Positions 35,250 to 54,728 are shown, counted from the first letter of the stretch. The stretch is 64,000 nucleotides of DNA from a virus (IMGVR_UViG_3300032087_004567), one strand, 5' to 3'. Notes: generated by a model from the letters alone, not told the origin. Numbers and translations are program-made.

Positions 35250-36961
35250 TAATATTTGAATCGGTTAAATGGAAAAATCTATTAAGTACTGGTAACTCAT
35301 TTACTAAAATAGATATAACTAAAAATAAAAATACTCTAATGATTGGATCTAATGGTGCTGGTAAAAGTACTATATTAGATGCATTATGTTTTGGTTTATA
35401 TAATAAACCTTTTAGAAAGATACCTAAAGGTCATTTAGTAAATATGATCAATCAAAAGAACTTAGAGGTAGAAATAGAGTTTAGAGTGGGTAAAAGAAAT
35501 TATCGTATAGTTAGAGGTATAAAACCTAATAAGTTTGAAATATACTTAGATGATAATCTTATAGATCAAAATGCTGATGCAAAAGAGTATCAAGAATACT
35601 TAGAGAAGAATATACTAAAACTTAATCATAAATCGTTTTGTCAAATAGTTGTACTAGGTTCAGCTAACTTTCAACCTTTTATGCAATTATCTGTTACCAA
35701 TAGAAGACAAATAATAGAAGATTTATTAGACATACAAATATTTTCATTAATGAATAATATTTTAAAAACTAAGTTAAGTGATAATAAGTTAGAACTTAAT
35801 GAGGCTAGTTTTAATATTAGAAATAATGCAGATAAAATTACAATGCTTAAAGAGCATTTAGAAAAGCTTAAACAGAATAATGAAGATCTTATTAAACAAA
35901 AAGAAGATAAGATAGATGAGTATAGAAAGCAAATAGCTACTAATAATAAAACTATAAAAGATCTTACTGTTGATCTAAAAGCAAAACTAGATAGTATCTC
36001 TGATGGTGAAAAGCTTAAACTAAAAGATAAAGAAGTATGGAAATCTATACAAACACTTTCTGCTAAAAAGAGTCAGATAGAATCAGAAATAGAATTCTTT
36101 ACTGATCATAATGATTGTCCTACTTGTAAGCAGGGTATAGATCATGAACATAAACAAAGTATAGTTTCAAAAGATAACGAAAAGATAGAAGAGATAACTG
36201 AAATAGAAAAAAAGCTTGACGATACTCATGATAAGATAGCTGCTAGGTTTAAAGAAATAAATGCTATTAAAGTAAAGATAGATGAGCTTAATAAGACCAT
36301 ATCAAATTGCACAGTACAAATTGAGACTTATAACAATTTTATAACTGACCTGACTACTGAGATAACTAAGATAAAAAAGGATTCTAAAGATGGTGAGGAT
36401 AATTCTGAAGAGTTAAAGAAGTATAAAAACGATCTTAAAAAAGCTATAGAGAATAAAGAAACGTTAGCAAAGGATAAACAGTTATTAGATATTGCAGTTC
36501 ATATATTACGTGATAGTGGTATAAAGACAAAGATTATAAAGCAGTATGTACCAGTAATGAATAAATTAATAAATAAGTATCTCGCTGCATTAGACTTCTT
36601 TGTTAATTTTAACCTTAATGAAAATTTTGAAGAGACAATAAAGTCTAGACATAGAGATAATTTTGTATATGAAAATTTTTCTCAAGGTGAGAAACTTAGA
36701 ATTGATTTAGCGTTATTATTTACTTGGAGGGCAATAGCTAAGTTAAGAAATAGTGCTAATACTAATTTATTAATTATGGATGAAATATTAGATTCATCTT
36801 TAGATATGGATGGTACTGATGAGTTTCTAAAGTTGATACAACAGTTGACTGAAGAAACAAATGTCTTTATAATATCCCATAAAGGTGATCAATTATTTGA
36901 AAAATTTGATAATGTAATGAGATTTGAGAAATATAAAAACTTTTCGAGGATGATAGTATGA
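35246..36961 (+). CDS. gp46: Recombination ATPase gp46 (Rad50/SbcC-like)
   Basis: GSNGAGKST, CPTC zinc hook, FSQGEK, MDE..DSSLD, ISH. Confidence 0.94.
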   Translation: MIIFESVKWKNLLSTGNSFTKIDITKNKNTLMIGSNGAGKSTILDALCFGLYNKPFRKIPKGHLVNMINQKNLEVEIEFRVGKRNYRIVRGIKPNKFEIYLDDNLIDQNADAKEYQEYLEKNILKLNHKSFCQIVVLGSANFQPFMQLSVTNRRQIIEDLLDIQIFSLMNNILKTKLSDNKLELNEASFNIRNNADKITMLKEHLEKLKQNNEDLIKQKEDKIDEYRKQIATNNKTIKDLTVDLKAKLDSISDGEKLKLKDKEVWKSIQTLSAKKSQIESEIEFFTDHNDCPTCKQGIDHEHKQSIVSKDNEKIEEITEIEKKLDDTHDKIAARFKEINAIKVKIDELNKTISNCTVQIETYNNFITDLTTEITKIKKDSKDGEDNSEELKKYKNDLKKAIENKETLAKDKQLLDIAVHILRDSGIKTKIIKQYVPVMNKLINKYLAALDFFVNFNLNENFEETIKSRHRDNFVYENFSQGEKLRIDLALLFTWRAIAKLRNSANTNLLIMDEILDSSLDMDGTDEFLKLIQQLTEETNVFIISHKGDQLFEKFDNVMRFEKYKNFSRMIV

Positions 36962-37479
36962 TATATGATTTAGTACCTGAAGATGATCCTATACTTCAAA
37001 GAAGACTAGATAACTTTAACGTAGCAGAACCTCCGATAGACCCAAGAGAGCTTGCAAATAATCTAATAGAGACTATGGTGGAGCATAATGGACTAGGTAT
37101 ATCAGCTAATCAATGTGGTTTACCTTATAGGGTGTTCGTAATGAGATCAATAGAACCATTAGTAGTAATTAATCCAAGAATAGTTGATACATCTACTAAA
37201 GAAGTACTAATGGAAGAAGGTTGTATATCTTTTCCTAATCTGGTTATAAAAATTAAAAGACCAGAAAAAATTAAAGTACGATATGTTACCTTAAAAGAAT
37301 TTGAACCGATGCAGTTAGATACAATAACTGAAACTTTTCATGGAATGTCTGCAAGGGTATTCCAACACGAACTCGATCATTTAAATGGAATTGACTATAG
37401 AACTAGAGCAAATAGTATTCATTTAGATAGAGGAATGAGAAAGCGAAAGAGACTAGAGAGACAATCTAGAAGTCTGTGA
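36958..37479 (+). CDS. def: Peptide deformylase
   Basis: GLGISANQCG, EGCISFP, QHELDHL.G. Confidence 0.92.
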   Translation: MIYDLVPEDDPILQRRLDNFNVAEPPIDPRELANNLIETMVEHNGLGISANQCGLPYRVFVMRSIEPLVVINPRIVDTSTKEVLMEEGCISFPNLVIKIKRPEKIKVRYVTLKEFEPMQLDTITETFHGMSARVFQHELDHLNGIDYRTRANSIHLDRGMRKRKRLERQSRSL

Positions 37480-37504: not shown

Positions 37505-38353
37505 ATGCAAAAAATAAAAGTAGCTGAAATATTTTATAGTATTCAGGGTGAAGGCTTGTACGCTGGTGTACCTAGTATATTTTTAAGAACCTTTGGATGT
37601 AATTTTACATGTTCAGGTTTTGGTATGCCAAGAGGACAAGTTAGCGATGAAAGAAATAAAATACCTATTACTGAGACAAGTACATATGATAATTTACCAT
37701 TAGTAAAGACCGGTTGTGATTCATATGCATCTTGGGATCCAAGATTTAAAAATCTATCTAAGTTCTATACATTAGAAGAGATAGAAGATATTATTATAGA
37801 TTTATTACCGTATAAGGAATGGAGAGATGAGCATCTTATCATTACTGGTGGTGAACCATTACTTGGTTGGCAAAAGGCATATATTAATCTCTTACAGAGA
37901 GATAAGATGAAGAAATGTAAACATATTACTTTTGAAACTAATGGCACGCAAGAATTAAGAGATGAGTTTAGTGAGTTTTTAAATAACTGGTCTGTTGATA
38001 ATGAAACTAACTTTACATTTAGTGTAAGTACTAAACTAAGCCCTTCTGGTGAAAAATTTGAAGATGCAGTTAAACCAGAAGTTATATCTAGTTACAGTAT
38101 AGGTAATCAATTATTTTTTAAATTTGTAATTGATAGTGACGAAGATGTAGAAGAGATAGAAAAAGCACTTAAGGTCTATGATCTAAAAGAAGTAACCGGT
38201 CATGAACCTATAGTATATGTTATGCCTGTTGGTGGCACGTCAGATTTATACGATGTCAACAGAAGAAAGGTTGCAGAAATAGCTATGAAAAAAGGTTGGA
38301 GATTTAGTCCACGTCTGCAGGTTGATATTTGGAAAAACGCATGGGGTACTTAA
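37505..38353 (+). CDS. queE: 7-carboxy-7-deazaguanine synthase (radical SAM)
   Basis: EIFYSIQGEG...G.P.IFLR..GCN..C...CDS, ITGGEPL, FETNGT, S.KL, SPRL.V..W. Confidence 0.9.
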   Translation: MQKIKVAEIFYSIQGEGLYAGVPSIFLRTFGCNFTCSGFGMPRGQVSDERNKIPITETSTYDNLPLVKTGCDSYASWDPRFKNLSKFYTLEEIEDIIIDLLPYKEWRDEHLIITGGEPLLGWQKAYINLLQRDKMKKCKHITFETNGTQELRDEFSEFLNNWSVDNETNFTFSVSTKLSPSGEKFEDAVKPEVISSYSIGNQLFFKFVIDSDEDVEEIEKALKVYDLKEVTGHEPIVYVMPVGGTSDLYDVNRRKVAEIAMKKGWRFSPRLQVDIWKNAWGT

Positions 38354-38354
38354 T

Positions 38355-38849
38355 ATGAATTATTCGTATAGTATGATGGCTAGAGCAATACATGGTATTT
38401 GTAGTAATGTAGAAGCATCTAAAATAAAATTTGATTATATTGTAGGATTATCAAGAGGTGGGTTAGTACCTGCGGTAAGATTATCACATTGTTTAAATTT
38501 AGATCTTGTACCATTAAGATGGTCATTACGTGATCATAAGGCAAGAGATGTAAGAATACTTTCTAATATTCTAAGCGATCTAACTGAAGGTAAAAAAATA
38601 TTAATGGTAGATGATCTTATTGATTCAGGTGAATCAATTGATGTAATGTTACATCAGATGGCAAGAATAAGAGGTCAATTACAATTTAATTTATTTGATA
38701 AAACTTGGGAAAATAATTTAGATATTGCAGTATTATTATTTAATACTGATCAAAAGAAAGTAAGACGTCCTAGGTTTGCATATGAAAATTTTAGTAGAAA
38801 AGAACGTCCTGAATGGATTAATTTTTGGTGGGAGGCAAAAGCAGCATGA
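38355..38849 (+). CDS. Type I purine phosphoribosyltransferase (gpt-like)
   Basis: IVGLSRGGLVPA, PRPP loop ILMVDDLIDSGES, C-term WI.FWWE. Confidence 0.85.
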   Translation: MNYSYSMMARAIHGICSNVEASKIKFDYIVGLSRGGLVPAVRLSHCLNLDLVPLRWSLRDHKARDVRILSNILSDLTEGKKILMVDDLIDSGESIDVMLHQMARIRGQLQFNLFDKTWENNLDIAVLLFNTDQKKVRRPRFAYENFSRKERPEWINFWWEAKAA

Positions 38850-39343
38850 AATGGTATAGTACAAAAACGTATGGTAATGATCAAGGATTAAGTTGTTGTT
38901 TTAGACAATGGAAAGCTGATCATAGTCATTGTTCGTTAATACATGGTTATAGTTTAGGTTTTAAATTAGTATTTGAATGCGATAAATTAGATGCTAGAAA
39001 CTGGGTAATGGACTTTGGAGGATTAAAAGATCTTAAAGAATGGTTAAAGTATATGTTCGATCATACTTTGGTTATAGCTGAAAGTGATCCAAAGTATGAT
39101 GAGTTAGAAAGATTAGGTAAGATAGGTCTTGCTGATGTTAGAGTAGTAGATGCAGTTGGAGCTGAAAAGTTTGCAGAATTAGTCTTTCGTAAGATGACTG
39201 AAATATTAGATAAAGCAAGAGAGGATGGTAAGTTACTTAATCCTTCAGTTAAGGTGAAGAGTGTAGAATGTTTTGAGCATGGTGCTAATTCTGCAATCTT
39301 TGAAGAAGATAATGTAGAAAGTGAATTTGGGACTTTATTATGA
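38846..39343 (+). CDS. queD: 6-carboxytetrahydropterin synthase
   Basis: HCSLIHGY, WVMDFGGLK, FDH, E.FA, E...NSA. Confidence 0.88.
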   Translation: MKWYSTKTYGNDQGLSCCFRQWKADHSHCSLIHGYSLGFKLVFECDKLDARNWVMDFGGLKDLKEWLKYMFDHTLVIAESDPKYDELERLGKIGLADVRVVDAVGAEKFAELVFRKMTEILDKAREDGKLLNPSVKVKSVECFEHGANSAIFEEDNVESEFGTLL

Positions 39344-40023
39344 GTTGCTGGGAAAAGATAACTGAAAAAATGATTAAAGATGGCCATAGATTCTATGCTG
39401 CCGATAATGTATCTAAGTATATTGAACCACATGAAAAAGAAATACTAATTGATGAATGTACTAGAGCGTTTGAGTTTGTTCTTGATAGTTTATTAGTAGA
39501 TAGAAAGAACGATCCTAATAGTCAAGGTACTGCAAGACGATTAGCTAAGATGTATTATAATGAAATATTTGCAGGTAGATATACTCCTACACCTAATGCT
39601 ACTGCATTTCCTAACACTGGTGATGACAAGTATGACGGTATGTTAGTGGTAAGGGCAGAGTTAAGATCTATTTGTTCGCATCATCATCAACCTGTAAAGG
39701 GTGTTGCTTATATTGCAATTATACCTAATGAAAAGTTAATTGGTTTATCTAAGTATGTTAGACTTGCACAACATCTTGCAAGACGTGGTACATTGCAAGA
39801 AGAGTTATGTAATAGAATAGTAAATAGTATTCGTGAGGCTACTGGTTCAGATGATGTAGCTGTTTATATTTCTGCAACACATGGTTGTATGGAAAATAGA
39901 GGTATTAATGCTACTTCATCTCTTACTCAAACTACTAGATTAAGCGGTCAATTCCATGATCCTGATGTTAAGAAAGAGTTCTTTGATAATATTGCACTAC
40001 AGCAATCGTATGGTGAGAAGTAG
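39340..40023 (+). CDS. folE: GTP cyclohydrolase I
   Basis: T..R.AKMY, S.CSHH..P..G, GLSK..R, QEEL, HGCM..RG. Confidence 0.92.
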   Translation: MSCWEKITEKMIKDGHRFYAADNVSKYIEPHEKEILIDECTRAFEFVLDSLLVDRKNDPNSQGTARRLAKMYYNEIFAGRYTPTPNATAFPNTGDDKYDGMLVVRAELRSICSHHHQPVKGVAYIAIIPNEKLIGLSKYVRLAQHLARRGTLQEELCNRIVNSIREATGSDDVAVYISATHGCMENRGINATSSLTQTTRLSGQFHDPDVKKEFFDNIALQQSYGEK

Positions 40024-40052
40024 TTGATTTAATTTAGGAAATATATTATAAT
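40024..40052 (+). promoter_or_regulatory. Sigma70-like early/middle promoter inside the deazaguanine cluster
   Basis: TTGATT-N17-TATAAT. Confidence 0.7.
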
Positions 40053-40074
40053 ATTATTTTATTATGGAGGTAAT

Positions 40075-40335
40075 ATGATTAGTCAACTAAGTTCAAAAGC
40101 TAGAGTTAAACAAGATGGCATTGGTGAAGATACAATGCATACATTATGGGATTATCATGCTAGTGCTCATACAGATGAATATAGAGTTATGTGTAAAGAT
40201 GCTATTAAGAAGTCATCTGGTAAAAATGAGACTAAATCTAACGCATGTGATGCATTAGATAAAATGACATCTAAAACTAAAATGATGCAGTTTGTAACTA
40301 ATTATTTTCTTAAAGGTGAAGGAAGAGGTGTCTAA
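40075..40335 (+). CDS. Hypothetical protein
   Basis: Strong RBS ggagg; first ORF after the 40024 promoter. Confidence 0.65.
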   Translation: MISQLSSKARVKQDGIGEDTMHTLWDYHASAHTDEYRVMCKDAIKKSSGKNETKSNACDALDKMTSKTKMMQFVTNYFLKGEGRGV

Positions 40336-40688
40336 TGCCTAAGATGTATTTTGCAGAGTTTACCAAAGACAATAAAGTATTTCAAAAGTTTGGTCATACA
40401 GGTCATAACGATGCAATGATAAGACTTAATAATATTACAAAAGAATATCCGCAGTTTAAGGCAAGAGTCTTAGCTGCGGCATATCATAATGATATTACAA
40501 AGTGTCAAGGGGCAGAAGAAGCTTTTAAATGTATGTACCCTAAGAATTTTTGGTTAGAAGAAAAAATATCTGGTATTACCGAATGTGTTGTATTAGATCA
40601 ATCGACTAGAAATTCTGTTATTCAAGCAGTGAGAAAATTGAATACTAAATTTAAGGAGGAGTGTTTTGGCAATCAAGATAGCGCATGA
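40335..40688 (+). CDS. GIY-YIG superfamily (T5orf172/MUG113-like) putative nuclease
   Basis: Y......KFGHT......R...E......SGITEC resembles the Y..KIG.T...R...E...G.TE.F pattern. Confidence 0.5.
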   Translation: MPKMYFAEFTKDNKVFQKFGHTGHNDAMIRLNNITKEYPQFKARVLAAAYHNDITKCQGAEEAFKCMYPKNFWLEEKISGITECVVLDQSTRNSVIQAVRKLNTKFKEECFGNQDSA

Positions 40689-41508
40689 ATGTCCCTTAGG
40701 AGTTTTTTATAGAGTTCAAGAACTTACTGATTATGATTATGCATTAGTTCATTTATTTGAAGAGTCAGAAGAATACTATAATAAATTTCTTATGGCTAAA
40801 ATGGCAGGTAGAGAAATTATTTTAGATAATTCTATATTTGAATTAGGTGAGGCATTTGATGCAGAGAAGTATGCATATTGGATAGAAAAGCTTAAACCTG
40901 ATTGGTATATAGTACCTGATAGTTTAGAGAATAAAAATGAAACTATTTCTAACTATGAAAACTGGATTAAGAATTATAATGACTTACCTGGTAAAAAGAT
41001 TGGAGTTGTACAAGGTAAAAATTATGATGAGGCAGTTGATTGTTATAAATATTTTTCTGTAGCGCCATATTGTGAAAAGGTAGCAATATCATTTGACTAT
41101 TCTTTTTACGAGACTATGAATCATAACTTAGAGTTTCCAACTAAGTATCATGCATGGTGTTTAGGTAGACAAGTATTTTTAGATAGGTTAATTAGAGATG
41201 ATTGGATTAATTATAAGAGACCTCATCATTTACTTGGTTGTAGTTTACCTCAAGAGTTTTTATACTATAAAACGAACGATAAGTTTAGATTTATAGAATC
41301 TTTAGATACTTCTAATCCAGTAGTTGCAGGATTAAAGGGGATAGTTTATAATGATACTATGGGTTTAGATGATAAACCTTCAGAAAAATTATATACGATG
41401 ATTGAGAGTGATGTGAGTAAAAATACGCTCAGTCTTATTGAAAAAAATATAGATGCATTTAGGAGAATATGTAATGAACTGGGTAGCGCTTTTCAGTCAA
41501 ACGGGTAG
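40666..41508 (+). CDS. dpdA: TGT/DpdA-like TIM-barrel 7-deazaguanine transglycosylase/transferase (DpdA3-like)
   Basis: IILDNSIFE, VPD, GVVQG, HHLLG and SLDTS correspond to TGT-family DSGGF / GIVQG / LG / catalytic D strands. No Zn-binding tail. TTG start with RBS aggagga; lies within the que cluster. Confidence 0.65.
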   Translation: MAIKIAHECPLGVFYRVQELTDYDYALVHLFEESEEYYNKFLMAKMAGREIILDNSIFELGEAFDAEKYAYWIEKLKPDWYIVPDSLENKNETISNYENWIKNYNDLPGKKIGVVQGKNYDEAVDCYKYFSVAPYCEKVAISFDYSFYETMNHNLEFPTKYHAWCLGRQVFLDRLIRDDWINYKRPHHLLGCSLPQEFLYYKTNDKFRFIESLDTSNPVVAGLKGIVYNDTMGLDDKPSEKLYTMIESDVSKNTLSLIEKNIDAFRRICNELGSAFQSNG

Positions 41509-41998
41509 TGAAATAGATACTCTAAGTAGAAATCTAAATCAAAAACCTGATCAAATACTTACTAACAATAAAGACTATGATGGACCTTTAGAAGTTACAA
41601 AAGGTACACATAAAGAATTAATGGATATGTTAGAGGAGTTAGATCCTTATACTTTAGTTACTTTACATGGTTATTTAAGAATAATACCTGAACGTATTAC
41701 CTCCCATTGTAAAAGAATGTATAACGGTCATCCTGCTCTTGCTAATGTATATCCTGAACTAAGAGGATTAGATCCACAAAAGAGAACATGGCAGAATATA
41801 GAAAGATATGCTGCGGTTGGATCTATTGTTCATCATGTAATACCCGAGGTAGATGCAGGGGACGTAGTTGCATATGAATCTATTGTAATACCACATAGTG
41901 ACTATACAGAAGAGGCGTTATATGGTGATTTAAGAACATGTTCAATAGTATCATGGAAGAAATTTTTAATGGAGTACTTTAATGAAAATCGGCATTAG
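41474..41998 (+). CDS. dpdN: Divergent PurN-like formyltransferase, putative preQ1 N-formyltransferase (DpdN-like)
   Basis: ALFSQTGSEI, LHGYLRII, N.HP.L and GS.VHHV..EVDAG retain the formyltransferase N/H/D catalytic residues with an altered substrate loop. Confidence 0.65.
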   Translation: MNWVALFSQTGSEIDTLSRNLNQKPDQILTNNKDYDGPLEVTKGTHKELMDMLEELDPYTLVTLHGYLRIIPERITSHCKRMYNGHPALANVYPELRGLDPQKRTWQNIERYAAVGSIVHHVIPEVDAGDVVAYESIVIPHSDYTEEALYGDLRTCSIVSWKKFLMEYFNENRH

Positions 41999-42503
41999 TG
42001 GTGTGCATGGTAGTGGTAAGACTACTTTACTTAATAATGAAATGTTTAGAAGTTGCACTAAATGCGATGAAGTAACTAGAACGGTTAAAAAAGAGTATAA
42101 CGTTGAGATAAACGAACAAGGTAATGATGTTACTCAGAAGTTAATTATGAGAGAACATATGGCAAATCTTATACTCAATAATAATATGGTAACTGATAGA
42201 ACTGTTATTGATTGTATGGCCTATACCCATTACCTTTATGATAATAAACAAGTAAGTAAAGATACGTTTAATTATATTTCTATGTGCTATAGTAAACTAG
42301 TTAAGAAATATGATCTTATATTTTATCTTGTACCAGTTGAAGATAAAATTGCCGATGATGGTGTTAGATCTACTAATGTAGAATTTAGAGATAAAATGAT
42401 AGAGTATTTTGAAAAGTATATTAATCATTTTAATGTAGTAAAGGTTAAAGGTGATTATAAAGAACGTATAAGGTTTTGTAGAGAAACTTTATGCTTATTT
42501 TAA
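41982..42503 (+). CDS. P-loop nucleotide kinase (AAA_28/NadR-like), putative dNMP kinase
   Basis: GVHGSGKTT, E..R, DRT..D..AY, YDLIFY, DDGVR. Confidence 0.75.
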   Translation: MKIGISGVHGSGKTTLLNNEMFRSCTKCDEVTRTVKKEYNVEINEQGNDVTQKLIMREHMANLILNNNMVTDRTVIDCMAYTHYLYDNKQVSKDTFNYISMCYSKLVKKYDLIFYLVPVEDKIADDGVRSTNVEFRDKMIEYFEKYINHFNVVKVKGDYKERIRFCRETLCLF

Positions 42504-42512
42504 AGGAGAAGA

Positions 42513-43442
42513 ATGGATAATCAAAAGAAACTTAACGAACTAGTAAGTGTTCATTTAGGTAAAGCCGGGGATGGTTCAGTAGTTAAACCTTATGTAACCC
42601 CTGATGAAGTTGATCCTAGTTTACTTGTAGGTGTACCTAGACAATTAAATAGAACGCAATATGATTTAGATGATGGCAATCTACCTTTCGTCGGTTACGA
42701 CGTATGGAACGGCTATGAATTTTCAACTTTACTTACTAGTGGGTTTCCTGTATCGGGATGGGTTAAGTTTAGCTATAGTTCAAGTACACCTTTTATTGTA
42801 GAAAGTAAATCGGTTAAACTTTATCTTAACTCTTTTAATATGGCAAAGATAATTGAGACTGAAAAAGATATAGAAGTTATAGAGACTAAAATTAAGAATG
42901 ATATAGGTGAGGTAGTAAAAGGTGATGTTGACGTTAGAGTGTTTATTGATCCTAAGGAAACAAAAGAACCTTTTAAGAAACCTTTCTATAGTATAGAAAA
43001 ATTAGTTGATGTAGAAAATATAAAGTTTGATCGTTATAATGAATCTGAAGACATACTAAAAATCATACCCATGGGTGAATGTCCGTTGAAAGGATATTAT
43101 AGATCCTATTCGTTACGTTCTAATTGTAGGGTAACTAATCAACCTGATTGGGGTGATGTATACATTTATATCAAAGGTGCTATGACGGTAAGTTTAGAGT
43201 CATTATTACAATATATTGTTTCTATGAGAAGAGAGAATCATTTTCATGAGGAAATATGTGAATGTATCTATAAACGATTACATGATCTATTGTCACCTAT
43301 TGAGTTATTTGTTGGTTGTTTATATACTAGACGTGGTGGGATTGATATTAATCCTATTAGGGCAACATCTATGGAAACTGTTAAGGCAGTAAGTAATATT
43401 CATAATGTAAATAGACCATCAACTAAGACTGCAAGACAATGA
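42513..43442 (+). CDS. queF: NADPH-dependent preQ0 reductase, bimodular type
   Basis: QueF motif ESKSVKLYLNSF; SNC..T.QPDWG; FHE; YTRRGGIDINP.R. Confidence 0.92.
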   Translation: MDNQKKLNELVSVHLGKAGDGSVVKPYVTPDEVDPSLLVGVPRQLNRTQYDLDDGNLPFVGYDVWNGYEFSTLLTSGFPVSGWVKFSYSSSTPFIVESKSVKLYLNSFNMAKIIETEKDIEVIETKIKNDIGEVVKGDVDVRVFIDPKETKEPFKKPFYSIEKLVDVENIKFDRYNESEDILKIIPMGECPLKGYYRSYSLRSNCRVTNQPDWGDVYIYIKGAMTVSLESLLQYIVSMRRENHFHEEICECIYKRLHDLLSPIELFVGCLYTRRGGIDINPIRATSMETVKAVSNIHNVNRPSTKTARQ

Positions 43443-43717
43443 TTGAATACAAATATAATGAACCTGAACATTTAGATAGTTTAAAGAAGTATATTGATAA
43501 TACCTATAATCAACATTATGCAAAAGGTAGTATACAGGCAACAGAATATATTATTGATTCGGGTTTAGGTAAAGGTTTTTGTATTGGGAATGTAATTAAG
43601 TATGCCTCCCGATATGGAAAGAAAGAGGGTAAGAATAAGAATGATTTATATAAAATCGTTCATTACATCATAATGGAACTAAATAGTTTAGATAAGGAAC
43701 AAAATGAATCTAAGTGA
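43439..43717 (+). CDS. DUF3310-like small helical protein
   Basis: YKYNE...YI..TY.QHY, GFC.GN..KY..RYGKK.G..DL.K..HY. Confidence 0.7.
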   Translation: MIEYKYNEPEHLDSLKKYIDNTYNQHYAKGSIQATEYIIDSGLGKGFCIGNVIKYASRYGKKEGKNKNDLYKIVHYIIMELNSLDKEQNESK

Positions 43718-44459
43718 GGCTTTAAACGTATTACCGGACACCGATAACAAAGTTCTATCTGTACATTCCGGAGGTATGGATTCTTCTATAATGACTATGT
43801 TGTTGGTAGAAAAATATGGTAAAGACAAAGTGGAGACTGTTTCTTATCGGTACGGTCAGAAACAGGCTGAAGAACTAGTAAGAGCGCAGGAGTTCTGCAG
43901 AACGTTAGGTATCTTAAGACATGAACTAGATCTAACCATCTTAGGTTATATTGCAAGAGAAATCTCCGCTAACATTGTAGAGAGTCATATTAAGATGCCA
44001 ACCATTAAAGAGGTACTAGGAGATCCTCAGCCTAAGACCTACGTACCGTTTAGAAACTTAATTCTACTTTCTATGACTCTTGCCCAGGCCGAGGCAAGAA
44101 ACTGTAATTATATATTTACCGGATTACAAGTACATGATGAATATGGCTACTGGGATACATCACAGAAGTTTGTTGATAGTATAAATGCTGTTGCCGATCA
44201 AAATAGAACGCATAAGGTAAAAATTATTGCACCCTTTAGTCATTTATCTAAGTATGATGAAATAAAATTATGCCAGGAGATGGGTAAAGAAGAGTTATTA
44301 GAACATACTCTAACGTGTTATAATCCTGATTCAGAAGGAAGATCATGCGGTGTATGTCCTTCTTGTTCTGAACGTATTGCTAATTTTATTAAAGCAGGGG
44401 TAAGAGATCCAATAGTGTATGTAAAAGATTTGCCGTGGACACAATTATTAAATAAATAG
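43704..44459 (+). CDS. queC: 7-cyano-7-deazaguanine synthase
   Basis: SGGMDS, YGQ, TYVPFRN, TCY...CG.C.SC..R zinc site. Confidence 0.93.
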   Translation: MNLSEALNVLPDTDNKVLSVHSGGMDSSIMTMLLVEKYGKDKVETVSYRYGQKQAEELVRAQEFCRTLGILRHELDLTILGYIAREISANIVESHIKMPTIKEVLGDPQPKTYVPFRNLILLSMTLAQAEARNCNYIFTGLQVHDEYGYWDTSQKFVDSINAVADQNRTHKVKIIAPFSHLSKYDEIKLCQEMGKEELLEHTLTCYNPDSEGRSCGVCPSCSERIANFIKAGVRDPIVYVKDLPWTQLLNK

Positions 44460-44463
44460 TTAT

Positions 44464-44997
44464 ATGGCAAAATATAATCATAGAACTATACATACAGTAT
44501 ATCTTGATATGGATGGGGTTCTATGTGATTTCGATTCATATTACAGATCAATATACGGGGTAAATTGCAGAGATGACGATAATGAAGATAATTGGTACGA
44601 GTTTGTCAATAATCAAGGATTTCAAGAGCTCGATAGAATGCCAGGTTACGATGATCTGTTTTCAATGCTCAACGAGCTGTATGTGGATATCGAGATTCTT
44701 TCCTGTATTACTAGTAGGAAGAATAATAAAGAGGTTGCAAAACAAAAAGTAGAATGGTTATTTAGAAATAGTTTAGAAAATAATGTAATTAACTTTACTA
44801 TAACAAAACAAGGTAAAGGTAATTATGCTAATCCAAATGTATTGCTGATTGATGATTCTGATGAATGTATTTCAGCATTTAAACAAAGTGGGGGGTATGC
44901 TTTAAAGTATACCGGTATTGATAAGCTAAAATTTGAGATTGAATATTTATTAAGTGAAGATATATTATGTGTGCGATCGTTGGGTCATTTCAGTTAG
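44464..44997 (+). CDS. HAD-family 5'(3')-deoxyribonucleotidase-like protein
   Basis: YLDMDGVL.DF, ILS, K..WL, K..YA, LIDD. Confidence 0.8.
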   Translation: MAKYNHRTIHTVYLDMDGVLCDFDSYYRSIYGVNCRDDDNEDNWYEFVNNQGFQELDRMPGYDDLFSMLNELYVDIEILSCITSRKNNKEVAKQKVEWLFRNSLENNVINFTITKQGKGNYANPNVLLIDDSDECISAFKQSGGYALKYTGIDKLKFEIEYLLSEDILCVRSLGHFS

Positions 44998-45590
44998 ATA
45001 AACTTAAAGAACTAATCAAGTTAAATTCCTATAGAGGTTCTCATTCATACTCTATATCGTTTTATGATATAGAAAATGGTACGTTGAATAATGTTATAAA
45101 AGACTTTGGTGAATTAGATGTTGATACTATAAGAATACCTTATGGTGATTATTGTATAGCACATATACAAGCGCCTACAACAACTAAAAAAGATAAAGAT
45201 TCAATTCATCCGGCAACTGTCGATGATTGTTATCTATGGCATAATGGTATAATAAAAGAAATGACAATTGAGAAGTTTAGTAAAGAGTATAATACTAAAT
45301 GGGATACTAAGTTACTACTTGAAGGAATTAAAAAAGTAGGTTATAATATACTCAATGAAATGGATGGTACGTTTAGTTGTTTAATGTATAAAGATAAGAA
45401 TTTATTATTATTTCGTAATGAAATATCTCCGATGTTTATAGATGATGATTTTAATATTTCATCAACGAAGTTTGATAATAGTAGAGAAACAGATCCTAAT
45501 AAAGTTATACAAATGGATCTAAAGAATAAAAGTCTACAAACAGTAGATAGATTTAAAACGTATTTTAACCCTTATTACTTTGGAGATTAA
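44967..45590 (+). CDS. Stand-alone class II (Ntn) glutamine amidotransferase
   Basis: N-terminal MC.I.G nucleophile, RG..S, H...PT, HP, WHNGII, DT, G.FS, FRN. Confidence 0.8.
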   Translation: MCAIVGSFQLDKLKELIKLNSYRGSHSYSISFYDIENGTLNNVIKDFGELDVDTIRIPYGDYCIAHIQAPTTTKKDKDSIHPATVDDCYLWHNGIIKEMTIEKFSKEYNTKWDTKLLLEGIKKVGYNILNEMDGTFSCLMYKDKNLLLFRNEISPMFIDDDFNISSTKFDNSRETDPNKVIQMDLKNKSLQTVDRFKTYFNPYYFGD

Positions 45591-45939
45591 TGTGAGTAAT
45601 TTTACAAGAATAAAAGAATGGTCTGATGAAAGACTTATTACCCAACAAGAACCTGATCGTAATGGTTTTATTTCTATGATAGTAGAAGAGTGTGGTGAGT
45701 TTTTAGCAGCTGAATCTACAGAAGGTAGAATAGATGCAATGGCCGATATGATTGTATTTTGTTATGGTGAAATAGCAAAGTATGGATATGATGGTGATAA
45801 AGTTATGGATGAGGTAATTAAAGAGATAAGTTCTCGTACTGGTTCATATAGTCCTGAAACTAAGAAGTGGCAAAAGGATAAATCTCCAGAAGCACAAGCA
45901 AAGTGGTATTCTGCTAATTTTAATAATTGTAAGTTATAA
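45580..45939 (+). CDS. MazG-like all-alpha NTP pyrophosphohydrolase (true start may be GTG 45592)
   Basis: EE..EF...DA..D...F acidic motif; SR.G......KW.K. Confidence 0.7.
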   Translation: MEINVSNFTRIKEWSDERLITQQEPDRNGFISMIVEECGEFLAAESTEGRIDAMADMIVFCYGEIAKYGYDGDKVMDEVIKEISSRTGSYSPETKKWQKDKSPEAQAKWYSANFNNCKL

Positions 45940-45948
45940 TGAAGAAAG

Positions 45949-46812
45949 GTGACTATGAAAATAGAAATTAATATTAATGAGCTGAGAAAGGCAAAGCTCT
46001 TTGTAGCTACTCCTATGTATGGTGGTCAATGTGCAGGGTTGTATACAAAGTCTATTGCCGATCTATCAGCATTATGTGCAAAGTATGGCTTGCAATTGCA
46101 ACTGTATTATTTGTTTAATGAGTCGTTGATTACTAGAGCTAGAAACTACTGCTGTGATGAGTTTCTAAGAAGTGGTGCAACACATTTACTATTCTTAGAT
46201 TCTGATATTGGTTTTAATCCGCATGATGTTATTGCTATGTTAACGTTAATGTTACAGAATCCTGGTAAGTTTGACATTATGGGTGCGCCTTATCCTAAGA
46301 AATGTATCTCATGGGAGAAGATTTTACAGGCGGTTAATAAAGGTGTTGCTGATGAGAATCCTAACGAGTTAGATAACTTTGTTGGTGATTTTGTATTTAA
46401 TCCTAAAGGTGGTGCACAAACTATACCATTAGGTGAACCTGCCGAGGTAATGGAGCTAGGTACTGGCTTTATGATGATACAGAGGGAAGTATTTAAGAAG
46501 TATGACGAGAAGTTTCCTGAGTTAAAATATAAACCTGATCATGTTCGTACTGAGCATTTTGATGGTACAAGAGAAATTATGGCATACTTTGATTGTATTA
46601 TCGATCCTAAGTCTAAGAGGTATCTATCTGAAGATTATATGTTCTGTTATAATGCTGAAAAGGCTGGTATTAGAACTTGGTTATGTCCTTGGATGAAAAC
46701 TACCCATGTTGGTTCTTATATGTTTGGTGGAAGCTTAAGCCATCTTGCAACTGTGGGGGCATCTGCTACTGCCGATCCTGGTAAACTTAAAAAGAAAGGT
46801 GCCATAAAATGA
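45949..46812 (+). CDS. GT-A fold glycosyltransferase
   Basis: FVATPMYGG, NESLITRARN, LFLDSDIGF (DxD), GTGFM.I.R, LSEDY.FC. Confidence 0.8.
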   Translation: MTMKIEININELRKAKLFVATPMYGGQCAGLYTKSIADLSALCAKYGLQLQLYYLFNESLITRARNYCCDEFLRSGATHLLFLDSDIGFNPHDVIAMLTLMLQNPGKFDIMGAPYPKKCISWEKILQAVNKGVADENPNELDNFVGDFVFNPKGGAQTIPLGEPAEVMELGTGFMMIQREVFKKYDEKFPELKYKPDHVRTEHFDGTREIMAYFDCIIDPKSKRYLSEDYMFCYNAEKAGIRTWLCPWMKTTHVGSYMFGGSLSHLATVGASATADPGKLKKKGAIK

Positions 46813-47501: not shown

Positions 47502-48443
47502 ATGCTAAATGATGAAATGCTCTGGGGGCAGAAATATCGCCCTAGAACAGTAAGTGATACGATTTTACCTAACGAATTGAAAGATACTTTTCAAGAGTTT
47601 GTAAATCAAAAGAATGTACCTAATTTACTTTTATCTGGTTCTCCAGGTACTGGTAAAACTACAGCTGCAAAAGCTATGTTAGAAGAAGTAGATTGTGATT
47701 ATATTGTTATTAACGGTAGTTTAAATGGTAATATTGATACGTTAAGAAATGATATAAAGTCATTTGCATCTGCTGTATCTTTATCTGGTGGTAGAAAATA
47801 TGTAATACTAGATGAAGCTGATTATCTAAATCCTAATTCAACTCAACCTGCTCTTCGTAACTTTATGGAAGAGTATTCTAAGAATTGTGGTTTTATTCTA
47901 ACGTGTAACTTTAAGAATAGAATTATAGAACCTCTACATTCAAGATGTGGTGTTGTTGAATTTAAAATACCTAAACAAGATAAACCTAAACTTGCTAAAA
48001 GTTTCTTTCAAAGAGTTAAAGAAATATTAGATCAAGAAAATATTGAGTATGATCAAAAGGTAGTTGCCTCTTTAGTACAGAAACATTTTCCAGACTTCAG
48101 AAGAACTATAAATGAACTGCAAAGATATTCTGCTACCGGTAAAATAGATTCAGGTATACTATCTAATCATAAAGAAGAATCGTTGAAGATGGTTATGGGT
48201 TTATTGAAAGAGAAAAACTTTACTGAGGTTAGAAAATGGGTAGGTGAAAATTCTGATGTTGATACTACTACATTTTTTAGAAGTTTATATGATACAGCAT
48301 CTGAATTTTTAAAGCCTGCATCTATACCTCAGTTAGTTTTACTATTAGCTGATTATCAATATAAGGCTGCATTTGTAGCTGATCCTGAAATTAATATTAT
48401 GGCCTGCTTAACTGAAATAATGGTTGAAGCAGAATTTAAATAG
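47502..48443 (+). CDS. gp44: Clamp loader large subunit gp44
   Basis: W..KYRP, G.PGTGKTT, LDEAD, QPALR.FME, SRC. Confidence 0.94.
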   Translation: MLNDEMLWGQKYRPRTVSDTILPNELKDTFQEFVNQKNVPNLLLSGSPGTGKTTAAKAMLEEVDCDYIVINGSLNGNIDTLRNDIKSFASAVSLSGGRKYVILDEADYLNPNSTQPALRNFMEEYSKNCGFILTCNFKNRIIEPLHSRCGVVEFKIPKQDKPKLAKSFFQRVKEILDQENIEYDQKVVASLVQKHFPDFRRTINELQRYSATGKIDSGILSNHKEESLKMVMGLLKEKNFTEVRKWVGENSDVDTTTFFRSLYDTASEFLKPASIPQLVLLLADYQYKAAFVADPEINIMACLTEIMVEAEFK

Positions 48444-49021
48444 TGGGTAAAGTAGGAGTATTAATTTCTGGTACTGGATCTAATCTTAAAGCTCTTGTGG
48501 ATGCTTTAGTCCCAATAGCTTGGGTTGGATCCAACAATCCAGATGCAAAAGGTTTGGATTTTGCTCATAAGAAGAACATCCATACCTTTGTGGAACCAAA
48601 GATTGCCGAACTTGAAAAGATCTTAGATCATTTTATGAAAGAGGTTGAGTTTTTGGTTCTTGCAGGTTTTATGAGAGTACTATCTCCTGAATTTGTGAAG
48701 AAGTATCCCAAAAGGATTATAAATATTCATCCAAGTTTGTTACCTGCATTCAAAGGTAAGGATGCTATTCGTAGAGCATATGATTATGGTTGTAAAGTTA
48801 TGGGTGTTACTATCCATTATGTTAATGAGAAAGTAGATGAAGGTGAGATCATTGCACAAGAACCTCTTTGGATTGTGAATACAATTTTAAATCATAATGC
48901 ACAACATACTAATCAAGTACGATATACTTACAAAGAAGTCGAACAACAAGTTCATAAGCTAGAACATAGTATGTATCACAAAGTCGTTCGAGATATGTTA
49001 GGTATTGGTGGTTGGGGATAA
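48443..49021 (+). CDS. purN: Phosphoribosylglycinamide formyltransferase (canonical PurN-like)
   Basis: VLISGTGSNL.AL, LAGFMRVL, INIHPSLLP.F.G, GVTIHYV...VD.G.II.Q, EH. Confidence 0.88.
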   Translation: MGKVGVLISGTGSNLKALVDALVPIAWVGSNNPDAKGLDFAHKKNIHTFVEPKIAELEKILDHFMKEVEFLVLAGFMRVLSPEFVKKYPKRIINIHPSLLPAFKGKDAIRRAYDYGCKVMGVTIHYVNEKVDEGEIIAQEPLWIVNTILNHNAQHTNQVRYTYKEVEQQVHKLEHSMYHKVVRDMLGIGGWG

Positions 49022-52178: not shown

Positions 52179-54728
52179 ATGAGTAAATTTTATACAAGTG
52201 TCTTTATGAATCGCGGTGATGTATTGCTACGTGGTTATGAGAACGGTAAGCGAGTACAACATGCAATACATTACAAACCATATCTTTTTGTTGGTTCAAG
52301 GATAAAAGATACTGATTATCGAACTATCAAAGGTAAGCCTGTTGATAAAATAGAGTTTGGTAGTGTATATGAAGCACGCGAGTTTTTAAGAAAGTATAAA
52401 GGTGTAGATGGAATGGACATCTACGGTCTGACTAATTTTATCTACACCTTTATTCATGATCATTATCCGGGCACAATCGACTACGACCCTAAACTAATCT
52501 CCGTTGTCTCGATCGATATTGAGACGTCCGCCGAAGGAGGTTTTCCAGATATTCAATCTGCTGATAAAGAAATAACTGCCATTACTATTAGTAAAAAAGG
52601 CAAAATGGTTGTGCTTGGATATAATGATTTCGAAATACCCCAAGGTGAAGAAGATAACATTACCTATTTGAAATGTGAATCTGAATCAGATCTACTTAAT
52701 AAGTTTATAAAGGTATGGAGATCCACACAATTTATTCCTGATGTTGTTACTGGTTGGAACTGTGAGTTCTTTGATATGCCCTACATTATAAATCGTATTA
52801 GTAGAATTATTGGACCTGAAAGTGCAAAAAGACTATCGCCTTGGGGTATAATATCGTATCGTGAAGTAGAGATAGCAGGTAGACAATATAGTATTCCTGA
52901 GATAGTAGGTATTACTATCTTAGATTATATGCAGTTGTATAAGAAGTTCTCTTTTACAATGCAAGAAAGTTACAAATTAGATTACATTGCCCAGGTCGTC
53001 CTTGGTGAGCGTAAACTTGATTATGATGCTCTTGGTTATGCTAACTTAGATGAGTTCTATAAAGGAAATTATCAAAAGTACATTGAATATAATATTCAGG
53101 ACGTGCGACTGGTAGATAGATTAGAAGATAAACTTAAATTCATAGAACAGGTGTTCGCCCTTGCCTATGATGGAAAGACTAATTATCTAGATACGTTTAC
53201 CTCAGTACGATCTTGGGACATGTATATCCATAATGAGTTACTATCTAAGAAGATAGTTATACCTCAGTTTGATCCATCAGAAAGAGCTAAAGATAATCCT
53301 ATTGAAGGTGCCTATGTTAAAGAACCTAAAGTAGGTATGCATAAATGGGTTGTATCTTTTGACTTAAATAGTCTATACCCTCATTTGATCATGCAATATA
53401 ATATCTCACCTGAAACCTTTGTAGATACTATATCTTCTCTGAGTGTGAAAGATGGAGTGGATAAGATACTTAATGGTGCATTGAATGATCCTGCAATAAG
53501 AAATGAAATGGAATCACAAAATGTAACTGTTGCTGCAACCGGTTGTATGTTTGATAAAGACTATCAAGGCTTTTTACCTCAGATGATGCAACGACTATAT
53601 GATGATAGGGTAAAGTTTAAGAATCAGATGATCGAGGCTAAGAAGAAGTATGAGAAAGAAAAAACATATGAACTAGAAAAGGAGATAGCACGTTGTCATA
53701 ATATGCAGCTTGCTAAAAAGATTCAGCTTAACTCGGTTTATGGTGCATTAGGTAACAAGTACTTTAGATGGTATGATCCTAGATATGCTGAATCGATTAC
53801 TAAGTCCGGTCAGTTATCTATTCGTTGGATGGAGAATAAAATAAATGGTTATCTGAATAAAGTACTTAAGACTGATAATGAAGATTATGTAATAGCTGTT
53901 GATACTGATTCGATGTATATAAACTTAGATGAGTTTGTACAAAAGACTTGTGAAGGTAAAACTACAGAGGATATAGTTAAGTACTTAGATAAAGTTTGTA
54001 ATGATGTCTTTGAACCTTTCATTGATAGATGCTATGAAGAGTTAGGTAAGTATGTTAATGCCTATGATCAGAAGATGAAGATGAAAAGAGAGGCAATAGC
54101 TGATAAAGGTATATGGACTGCTAAAAAGAGATATATTCTTAATGTAAGAAATAACGAGGGTGTTCAATATAAAGAACCTCAGTTAAAGATTATGGGTATT
54201 GAGGCAGTTAGATCTTCTACTCCTGCTATAATTAGACAAACGATTAAAGATGCATTGAAACTAATTATGACTAAGACTGAAGATGATGTAATTGATTTTA
54301 TTGCACAGCAACGAGAAGACTTTCGTGGTAGACCTTTTGAAGATGTAGCCTTTCCAAGAGGTTGTAAAGAGATAGAAAAATGGATGGATAATAGTACCAG
54401 TATAAAAGTATATAAGTCTGGTTGTCCTATTCATGTGAAAGGTGCTATACTATATAATCTTTTATTAGAACAAAAGAAGCTAACTAATAAATATGAGAAG
54501 ATAAACAGGGGTGAGAAAATAAAGTTTAGTTATCTTAAGATGCCTAACTTTATTGGAGAACATGTAATTAGTTCACCTGATAAATTACCTGAAGAGTTTG
54601 AATTGAATGAGTTTATAGATTATGATATGCAATTTCAAAAGTCCTTCCTTGACCCTTTAAAAACTATTCTTGATGTCATAGGTTGGGAAACAGAACGACG
54701 TAATACATTGGAGAATTTTTTCGCATGA
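52179..54728 (+). CDS. gp43: Family B DNA polymerase gp43
   Basis: DIET, GWN..FFD, SFDLNSLYP, K...NS.YG, DTDS, KKRY, GIEAVRSSTP. Confidence 0.97.
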   Translation: MSKFYTSVFMNRGDVLLRGYENGKRVQHAIHYKPYLFVGSRIKDTDYRTIKGKPVDKIEFGSVYEAREFLRKYKGVDGMDIYGLTNFIYTFIHDHYPGTIDYDPKLISVVSIDIETSAEGGFPDIQSADKEITAITISKKGKMVVLGYNDFEIPQGEEDNITYLKCESESDLLNKFIKVWRSTQFIPDVVTGWNCEFFDMPYIINRISRIIGPESAKRLSPWGIISYREVEIAGRQYSIPEIVGITILDYMQLYKKFSFTMQESYKLDYIAQVVLGERKLDYDALGYANLDEFYKGNYQKYIEYNIQDVRLVDRLEDKLKFIEQVFALAYDGKTNYLDTFTSVRSWDMYIHNELLSKKIVIPQFDPSERAKDNPIEGAYVKEPKVGMHKWVVSFDLNSLYPHLIMQYNISPETFVDTISSLSVKDGVDKILNGALNDPAIRNEMESQNVTVAATGCMFDKDYQGFLPQMMQRLYDDRVKFKNQMIEAKKKYEKEKTYELEKEIARCHNMQLAKKIQLNSVYGALGNKYFRWYDPRYAESITKSGQLSIRWMENKINGYLNKVLKTDNEDYVIAVDTDSMYINLDEFVQKTCEGKTTEDIVKYLDKVCNDVFEPFIDRCYEELGKYVNAYDQKMKMKREAIADKGIWTAKKRYILNVRNNEGVQYKEPQLKIMGIEAVRSSTPAIIRQTIKDALKLIMTKTEDDVIDFIAQQREDFRGRPFEDVAFPRGCKEIEKWMDNSTSIKVYKSGCPIHVKGAILYNLLLEQKKLTNKYEKINRGEKIKFSYLKMPNFIGEHVISSPDKLPEEFELNEFIDYDMQFQKSFLDPLKTILDVIGWETERRNTLENFFA

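Follow-up and report, generated by a model that had tools for sequence, protein, structure and literature searches.

The window analysed here, 64,000 nucleotides of viral DNA (IMGVR_UViG_3300032087_004567), belongs to a T4-like phage of low GC content (~32%) that encodes a T4-like backbone of a gp55-like late sigma factor, gp47/46-like SbcCD, gp45, gp44 and the gp43 polymerase (52179-54728), and near-identical phage DNA was detected in marine metagenomes from seawater and sediment in at least five studies. One tightly packed block of mostly overlapping plus-strand genes, lying between a peptide deformylase (36958-37479) and gp45, forms a 7-deazaguanine island around a DpdA3-type transglycosylase, and the question addressed is whether this enzyme and its neighbours would place the modified base in phage DNA before or after replication. 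All genes named in an earlier reading of the sequence alone (hereafter the original prediction) were recovered on the plus strand at the positions it had given.

The island contains QueE, a radical S-adenosylmethionine (SAM) 7-carboxy-7-deazaguanine synthase (37505-38353) with weak Pfam Radical_SAM/Fer4_12 matches, the homologues of which occupy the same position in 40 of 44 related loci; a Gpt-like 6-oxopurine phosphoribosyltransferase (PRTase; 38322-38849, with an ATG at 38355; PF00156, E 2.5e-11); QueD, the 6-carboxytetrahydropterin (CPH4) synthase (38825-39343; PF01242, E 1.7e-14); and FolE, GTP cyclohydrolase I (39340-40023; PF01227, E 4.3e-40). Two small open reading frames (ORFs) of 86 and 117 amino acids (aa) without a Pfam match (40075-40688) lie upstream of DpdA3, a 7-deazaguanine transglycosylase of 280 aa (40666-41508; phrog_19058) with a tRNA-guanine transglycosylase (TGT) fold in its model, which is followed by a DpdN-type PurN-like formyltransferase (41453-41998; PF00551, E 5.3e-13) and a P-loop (deoxy)nucleoside/nucleotide kinase of the AAA_28 type (41982-42503; AAA_28, E 1.7e-11; phrog_2107, E 8e-27). 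Then come QueF, the reductase from preQ0 to preQ1 (42513-43442; QueF_N, E 4.7e-28; QueF, E 1.3e-20); a DUF3310 protein, that is, the nucleotide-kinase domain of T7 gp1.7 (43439-43717; PF11753, E 1.1e-12); the preQ0 synthase QueC (43704-44459; PF06508, E 2.4e-49); a HAD/NT5C-type 5'-deoxyribonucleotidase-like protein (44464-44997; phrog_2643, E 1.7e-26; NT5C, E 1e-4, below the Pfam cut-off); a free-standing class-II glutamine-amidotransferase-like protein (44967-45590; phrog_12378, E 4.8e-52; GATase_6/7 below the Pfam cut-off); and a MazG/HisE-like all-alpha NTP pyrophosphohydrolase (45580-45939; PF01503, 26.2 bits versus a cut-off of 21.3). As homology shows, FolE, QueD, QueE and QueC together with QueF are predicted to turn GTP into the free base preQ1.

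Protein identities show the island to be homologous with the fdPreQ1 system found in Flavobacterium phage immuto_2-6A (DpdA3 55%, DpdN 37%, kinase 34%, QueF 46%, QueD 45%, FolE 37% and PRTase 31%), with the same core order DpdA3-DpdN-kinase-QueF, and its gene set was already known. The two phages differ in backbone, the T4-like gp43/44/45/46/47/55 set here against a PolA myovirus, and in MazG, which in the window is of another subfamily and downstream of DpdA3 but in immuto_2-6A lies just upstream of it; the window additionally carries the DUF3310, HAD and free amidotransferase genes and the two small ORFs. In immuto_2-6A, in the description of which DpdA3 and DpdN were named, the dG peak was gone and fdPreQ1 stood in its place, 100% of G being replaced (Cui/Hutinet, NAR 2023, PMC10516641). 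The near-complete G replacement foreseen by the original prediction is thus what homology leads one to expect in the window phage, and is a sound prediction. In the model published for these systems, to which we assign an appreciable but minor share of the probability, DpdA3 would flip each G out of phage DNA that has just been synthesised, inserting preQ1, DpdN would formylate the base in DNA or in free form, and the PRTase, kinase and pyrophosphatases would only help to supply precursor (from guanine through GMP and GDP to the GTP used by FolE) and balance the pools. A route through a modified dGTP had been proposed for Campylobacter phages, as noted in an earlier paper of the same group (PMC6884629).

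The window protein at 40666-41508 is by sequence a member of the DpdA3 subfamily, with 55% identity to immuto_2-6A DpdA holding over 96% of the protein and 39% identity to CP220 gp056, and the family profile picks up phiST gp042 (E 3.7e-13) as well. Library scans yielded neither a Pfam nor an NCBIfam match for it, and the profile found no TGT among the PDB sequences, only one chance match (E 1.5), the homology being visible by fold alone: the AlphaFold2 model (pLDDT 92) matched bacterial and human TGT, QTRT1, ArcTGT and the DpdA structure 7ui4 with a Foldseek probability of 1.0, and 234-245 of 280 residues were aligned (VIA Z 17.5-18.2, root-mean-square deviation 3.0-3.5 Å). All 32 sequences compared have D54 (LDNS) and D214 (SLDTSNP), which follow the TGT motif order and are candidate equivalents of TGT D102 and D280. 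Beyond SLDTSNP there are one Cys and no His, and thus no CxCxxC...H zinc site, so that the earlier description of a short DpdA-like protein lacking the Zn-binding module holds for these 280 residues. Acidity is another uniform trait of the DpdA3 proteins, whose pI lies at 4.6-6.4 and whose net charge ranges from -2 to -22. The acidity and the missing Zn module both speak against exchange in finished DNA, as does the published E. coli assay, in which DpdA3 could not be made to work on DNA although DpdA1 and DpdA2 do work there (PMC10516641); the same study detected the ADG nucleoside in the cytoplasm of CP220-infected cells (PMC10516641).

In the IMG/VR collection 567 stretches with confirmed DpdA3 were found, of which 80 loci were taken, and homologues fall into 4080 metagenomic protein clusters (E<=1e-3). 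Fusions of DpdA3 to QueF occur among them and show that DpdA3 takes in preQ1 as the free base, which puts DpdN after the exchange; on the side of the post-replicative model, they show no more than this uptake of the free base. A DNA-binding domain was sought in the fused forms longer than 490 aa and none was found, these being DpdA3-QueF and one protein with an N-terminal domain of unknown kind; in the latter (P0121) the added domain measures 315 aa. In the published literature, where the name DpdA3 turned up in a single relevant paper, we found nothing that settles the substrate of DpdA3.

DpdN, whose start overlaps the DpdA3 stop and which is 37% identical to immuto_2-6A DpdN, stands in the window together with the full FolE-to-QueF pathway, and its gene is present in 60 of 62 loci. 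The catalytic residues N-x-H...D are kept and the N-terminal loop FSQTGSE is conserved, the pattern FS[QHN][TS]G[STK]E[IL] occurring in 59 of 65 distinct sequences and aligning with the ISGxGSNL loop of PurN, which binds the 5'-phosphate of glycinamide ribonucleotide (GAR). A DpdN-dominated profile matched GAR transformylases over their full length but Fmt, ArnA, PurU and sugar formyltransferases only in the core, from about position 50. With its sugar phosphate, short linker and primary amine, the 5'-monophosphate of (d)preQ1 resembles GAR. The phage has a second, canonical PurN (48443-49021; PF00551, E 9e-38), which with the peptide deformylase at 36958-37479 flanks the region; of its two PurN-fold enzymes only the divergent one, DpdN, adjoins DpdA3.

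Two unrelated kinase families were found to alternate beside DpdA3. A first count by tblastn placed the P-loop kinase in 41 of 62 loci, and an iterative profile search then covered 55 non-identical DpdA3 loci with enough flank, 38 of which carried the P-loop kinase (Kin) and 17 a DUF3310 protein, none having both and none neither. The P-loop kinase occupies the same slot in 36 loci, the slot between DpdN and QueF is taken by a DUF3310 ORF in 14, and a clade of small PolA phages shows the order MazG-DUF3310-x-DpdA3, where x is one further ORF; the window is unusual in having a P-loop kinase and DUF3310 together. Pfam confirmed DUF3310 in the ORFs of the kinase-less loci (34-78 bits) and places it at residues 122-184 of T7 gp1.7, a nucleotide kinase for dGMP and dTMP (PMC11897194). 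The nucleotide kinase that the original prediction had put in the synthesis arm is therefore, by comparative genomics, a constant of DpdA3 loci (55/55), supplied by one family or the other.

In the window kinase a P-loop is joined by a DR motif and by an arginine lid (DDGVRS...FR), and its model (pLDDT 91) is nearest in fold to thymidylate kinase (TMPK), deoxycytidine, deoxynucleoside and deoxyadenosine kinases (dCK, dNK and dAK) and the RNK domain of NadR; it gave no NCBIfam match. On this modelled fold it is predicted to be a small-molecule (deoxy)nucleoside/nucleotide kinase and not a DNA ATPase or motor, and a part as DpdB-like ATPase partner of a DNA enzyme was rejected, fold and motifs being those of thymidylate and deoxynucleoside kinases. 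Adjacency of kinase and DpdA3 is common to the distant cultured phages immuto_2-6A, CP220 (DpdA3 gp056, Kin gp057), CC_R7 (QueC, DpdA3-like, Kin, PolB), phiST (FolE, MazG gp039, gp040, P-loop gp041, DpdA3 gp042) and Bacillus BSTP12 (phrog_761 kinase, DpdA-like, PolA). Bacillus phages of the BSP7/BSTP group (BSTP12 being L084, 255-7692), the DNA modification of which appears undescribed, carry Gat-QueC, QueD, FolE, the phrog_761 kinase, a DpdA3/DpdA4-like protein (weak DUF6610 match) and PolA. In one protein of 473 aa (P0127), followed by QueC, the kinase (1-176) and DpdA3 (190-466, E 1.7e-72) are fused. The word 'kinase' does not occur in either the 2019 or the 2023 deazaguanine paper (PMC6884629, PMC10516641).

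Pyrophosphatases behave in the same manner. Among 36 DpdA3 loci with wide flanks, on which this and the accessory-gene census were done, 25 had a MazG-type gene and 11 a dCTP-deaminase (DCD)/dUTPase-fold gene, again none with both and none with neither. Three MazG/HisE-type subfamilies are involved, the window type, the immuto_2-6A 'NTPPH' type and the PF03819 type of phiST and L047; the window protein matched the DR2231 MazG-like protein weakly and had no NCBIfam match. In T4-like loci without the window-type MazG, a DCD/dUTPase-fold gene (PF22769, E 2.4e-14) fills the slot after the amidotransferase, and it sits exactly in the MazG slot at 15133-15633 of L007 and in 24 other loci. That kinases unrelated to each other, and likewise pyrophosphatases, take each other's place speaks for both functions being indispensable to the DpdA3 module; the window has a linked MazG-like gene, a linked kinase-fold protein and DUF3310. 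The putative dNTP-depleting arm of the original prediction is supported by comparative genomics in its pyrophosphatase-superfamily gene (36/36 loci) but not in its HAD enzyme, which is present in only five of these loci.

As a control, 18 DpdA1 loci were examined, from phage 9g, in which DNA modification is partial, together with relatives retrieved with 9g DpdA, and they contained Kin 0, DUF3310 1, MazG 2, DCD 0, HAD 0 and PRTase 1 times. That the kinase and MazG enzymes are nearly absent from this lineage of partial modification speaks against the post-replicative model. One locus (L110, 3458-6985) is an exception among the controls: next to its DpdA1-like protein (40% identity to 9g DpdA) MazG and DUF3310 stand as a pair, and there is a weak match to the PRTase. 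A small PolA phage of 44 kb (L047, 8893-13533; 100% complete by IMG/VR) carries MazG, DUF3310, a 186-aa ORF, DpdA3, DpdN and PolA in a row and has neither FolE nor Que genes in its genome; its preQ1 must therefore come from the host, and its kinase and MazG cannot be serving FolE, which makes the FolE feeding assumed in the post-replicative model impossible there.

Two further island genes, those of the PRTase and the HAD protein, are accessory. The PRTase has both marks of 6-oxopurine PRTases, the phosphoribosyl pyrophosphate (PRPP) motif MVDDLIDSG (DDxxD[ST]G) with its third Asp and, in a Gpt-like W-I motif (WINFWWE), the C-terminal purine-stacking aromatic; its best solved relatives are the purine PRTase 1vdm (E 2e-10), Sulfolobus GpT-2 and E. 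coli XGPRT, and against the NCBIfam xanthine PRTase model it scored 41 bits, far under the 138-bit cut-off, and so is not an equivalog. It is present in 22 of the 36 wide-flank loci (61%), namely in 22 of 28 with the P-loop kinase and in none of the eight with DUF3310. The original prediction had made this enzyme a possible entry point of the base into nucleotides, a role at odds with such a distribution, and had offered the recycling of released guanine as its alternative, which suits the motifs; guanine recycling is the best-fitting and likely role of this accessory enzyme. The word phosphoribosyltransferase does not occur in PMC10516641. The HAD protein (DMDGV motif; no NCBIfam match) is accessory too, and because it is found in so few loci, a nucleoside-level variant, in which HAD makes dG and the kinase re-phosphorylates it, is kept merely as a sub-option. 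The amidotransferase follows QueC in 27 related loci, either at once or, like here, with the HAD gene in between, and may be the split form of a Gat-QueC fusion that supplies ammonia to QueC, despite the presence of QueF. CP220 gp055 (HD and AAA_33), tried as a dGTPase, was not counted since it looks like a polynucleotide kinase/phosphatase (phrog_505).

That a kinase and a dNTP-cleaving enzyme always stand beside DpdA3 suggests that the base is built on free nucleotides before the DNA is copied, and we lean, with modest confidence, to a pre-replicative origin of N-formyl-preQ1 DNA in which the base is exchanged at the level of dGMP (dNMP). In such a scheme the MazG-like dNTP pyrophosphatase would convert dGTP to dGMP, at once draining dGTP and supplying substrate; DpdA3 would swap the guanine of dGMP (or dG) for preQ1, in the synthesis of which the free amidotransferase may provide QueC with ammonia; and the PurN-derived DpdN would formylate the aminomethyl group of a nucleotide that resembles its ancestral substrate GAR. 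A dedicated kinase (the P-loop Kin, the DUF3310 protein or both) would then make the diphosphate and a host NDP kinase the triphosphate, which the gp43 polymerase would incorporate, and the Gpt-like PRTase would return the freed guanine to GMP and on to GTP for FolE. Of the original prediction's interpretation, the kinase and pyrophosphatase linkage and the near-complete G replacement are retained here, and the PRTase entry and the HAD role are not supported in the form proposed. DpdA3 would on this account not be a DNA enzyme; we rate at an even chance that it is the first TGT-superfamily transglycosylase with dGMP or dG, a free deoxynucleotide, as its substrate. It would then stand at the heart of a pre-replicative replacement pathway of a third kind, after hydroxymethylcytosine (hmC)/hydroxymethyluracil (hmU) and the Z-genome, and its partners would be a pyrophosphatase for dGTP, a nucleotide formyltransferase derived from PurN and dedicated kinases that can stand in for one another.

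The scheme would amount to the logic of T4 hmC applied to G. In T4, the gp56 dCTPase, the gp42 dCMP hydroxymethylase and the gp1 dNMP kinase bring about complete replacement of one base, and the window shares this triad of dNTP pyrophosphatase, dNMP-level base-altering enzyme and dedicated dNMP kinase, activity on dGMP being inferred here. That combination is what marks pre-replicative base replacement in T4. The two differ in that a TGT-fold base exchanger stands here in place of a hydroxymethylase of the thymidylate-synthase fold, and in that the target is a purine. In the Z-genome cluster PurZ/MazZ/DatZ of S-2L-type cyanophages, the enzyme of synthesis works at the dNMP level and receives its substrate from a MazG-type (d)GTP pyrophosphatase; a MazG-type gene and complete purine replacement with removal of the canonical dNTP (presumed here) are held in common, whereas the window has no PurZ or DatZ homologue and no HD-type triphosphohydrolase, and the Z base is built on the nucleotide while the base here would be made separately and then exchanged in. 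With the DpdA1, DpdA2 and bacterial DpdA-DpdB systems (9g, CAjan, Salmonella Dpd, 7ui4) the island shares a TGT-superfamily enzyme, the preQ0 pathway and a 7-deazaguanine; those systems have longer enzymes (9g DpdA, 317 aa) that are proven to act on DNA, modification that is partial and often motif-specific, and few kinase or MazG neighbours.

Post-replicative exchange with nucleotide supply or salvage is nonetheless a serious rival, although we believe it the less probable course. DpdA3 is of the TGT/DpdA fold family, known members of which act on tRNA or DNA; deazaguanines are put into DNA by phage DpdA1 and DpdA2 and by the DpdA of bacteria (PMC10516641, PMC6884629); and a Gpt-like PRTase suits the recycling of guanine, which would be released stoichiometrically under either model. 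A fusion of the AAA_28 kinase to the type I GTP cyclohydrolase FolE2 (P0126) ties the kinase to GTP use and suits a GTP-supply role equally. Salvage, however, needs the PRTase first, and it is the PRTase that is absent from 14 of the 36 loci and the kinase that never is. Host Gmk is essential, and it should cover the step from GMP to GDP.

Several observations weigh against the pre-replicative reading itself. The authors of the immuto_2-6A study conclude that every deazaguanine modification of DNA is made after replication (PMC10516641). The Kin/DUF3310 switch maps to four changes on the DpdA3 tree, only one of which is forced by well-supported branches, and kinase activity is an assumption for the small proteins made up of DUF3310 only, in which the N-terminal two thirds of gp1.7 have no counterpart. 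Phage replication modules often contain MazG, dUTPase-fold and kinase genes, and the MazG/DCD slot of T4-like loci is at the island edge, adjoining gp45. The DpdA1 control spans a narrow phylogenetic range, largely Queuovirinae, the fusion of Kin with DpdA3 comes from one 2.9-kb contig, and Kin homologues occur in 89 Streptomyces phage records, the sole inspected locus of which (Coruscant) has no deazaguanine genes nearby; the idea of a kinase family specific to deazaguanine phages was accordingly dropped. To our knowledge, all characterised TGT and DpdA enzymes work on a polynucleotide.

Entry at the ribonucleotide level through the PRTase, as in tubercidin/toyocamycin synthesis, in which a deazaguanine and PRPP would give the ribonucleoside monophosphate, the kinase the diphosphate and ribonucleotide reductase (RNR) the deoxy form for the polymerase, with DpdA3 mopping up residual G, is very unlikely, for the PRTase is absent from 39% of the wide-flank loci and all DUF3310-type loci, DpdA3 is universal, and the window PRTase keeps the third Asp of DDxxD[ST]G, which in 6-oxopurine PRTases contacts the N7 that 7-deazapurines do not have. 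For it speak the position of the window PRTase between queE and queD, a second phiST site with the order PRTase, dNMP kinase (gp065), one ORF and RNR large subunit, and the sharing of FolE, QueD, QueE and a purine-type PRTase with the TubE/ToyH clusters, where TubE joins 7-carboxy-7-deazaguanine to PRPP (PMC6112128) in a proven base-to-nucleotide route; those clusters have no TGT-fold enzyme and make a ribonucleoside antibiotic, not DNA, and TubE rejected plain 7-deazaguanine (PMC6112128).

Around the core island, homologues of the small ORFs upstream of DpdA3 were found in about 20 related loci, and the 117-aa ORF (40335-40688), which overlaps the DpdA3 start and has homologues ahead of DpdA3 in about 19 loci, has a T5orf172/MUG113 (GIY-YIG-like) likeness by atlas features only (score 0.93-0.94), which we treat as a lead. 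Between the island and gp45 a conserved protein of 287 aa (45949-46812; phrog_1574) has protein-atlas leads to nucleotide-diphospho-sugar (GT-A) glycosyltransferases, its homologue in L007 giving a weak Anp1 match (E 0.004), and it may perform a further glycosylation step on DNA or base. Short contigs from RNA libraries cover parts of the island, and neither transcription nor anything on the mechanism can be read from contigs; one joint in a contig, which skips 41334-42014, was disregarded, one side being only 21 bases.

The DpdA3/DpdN gene set was known, and what would be new is the mechanistic reading, which, drawn from the gene-neighbourhood pattern, points opposite to the published post-replicative view and contradicts that proposal. 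Phage DNA in which 7-deazaguanines stand for every G resists most restriction enzymes, and DpdA3 is a very abundant family (the 4080 metagenomic protein clusters). Whether the base is inserted before or after replication decides which enzymes host defences really target, how the phage excludes dGTP, and whether the enzymes could serve for making 7-deaza-dGTP analogues enzymatically. If the free-deoxynucleotide route is true, wholesale replacement of G would be common in aquatic phages, with >4000 metagenomic clusters of the family.

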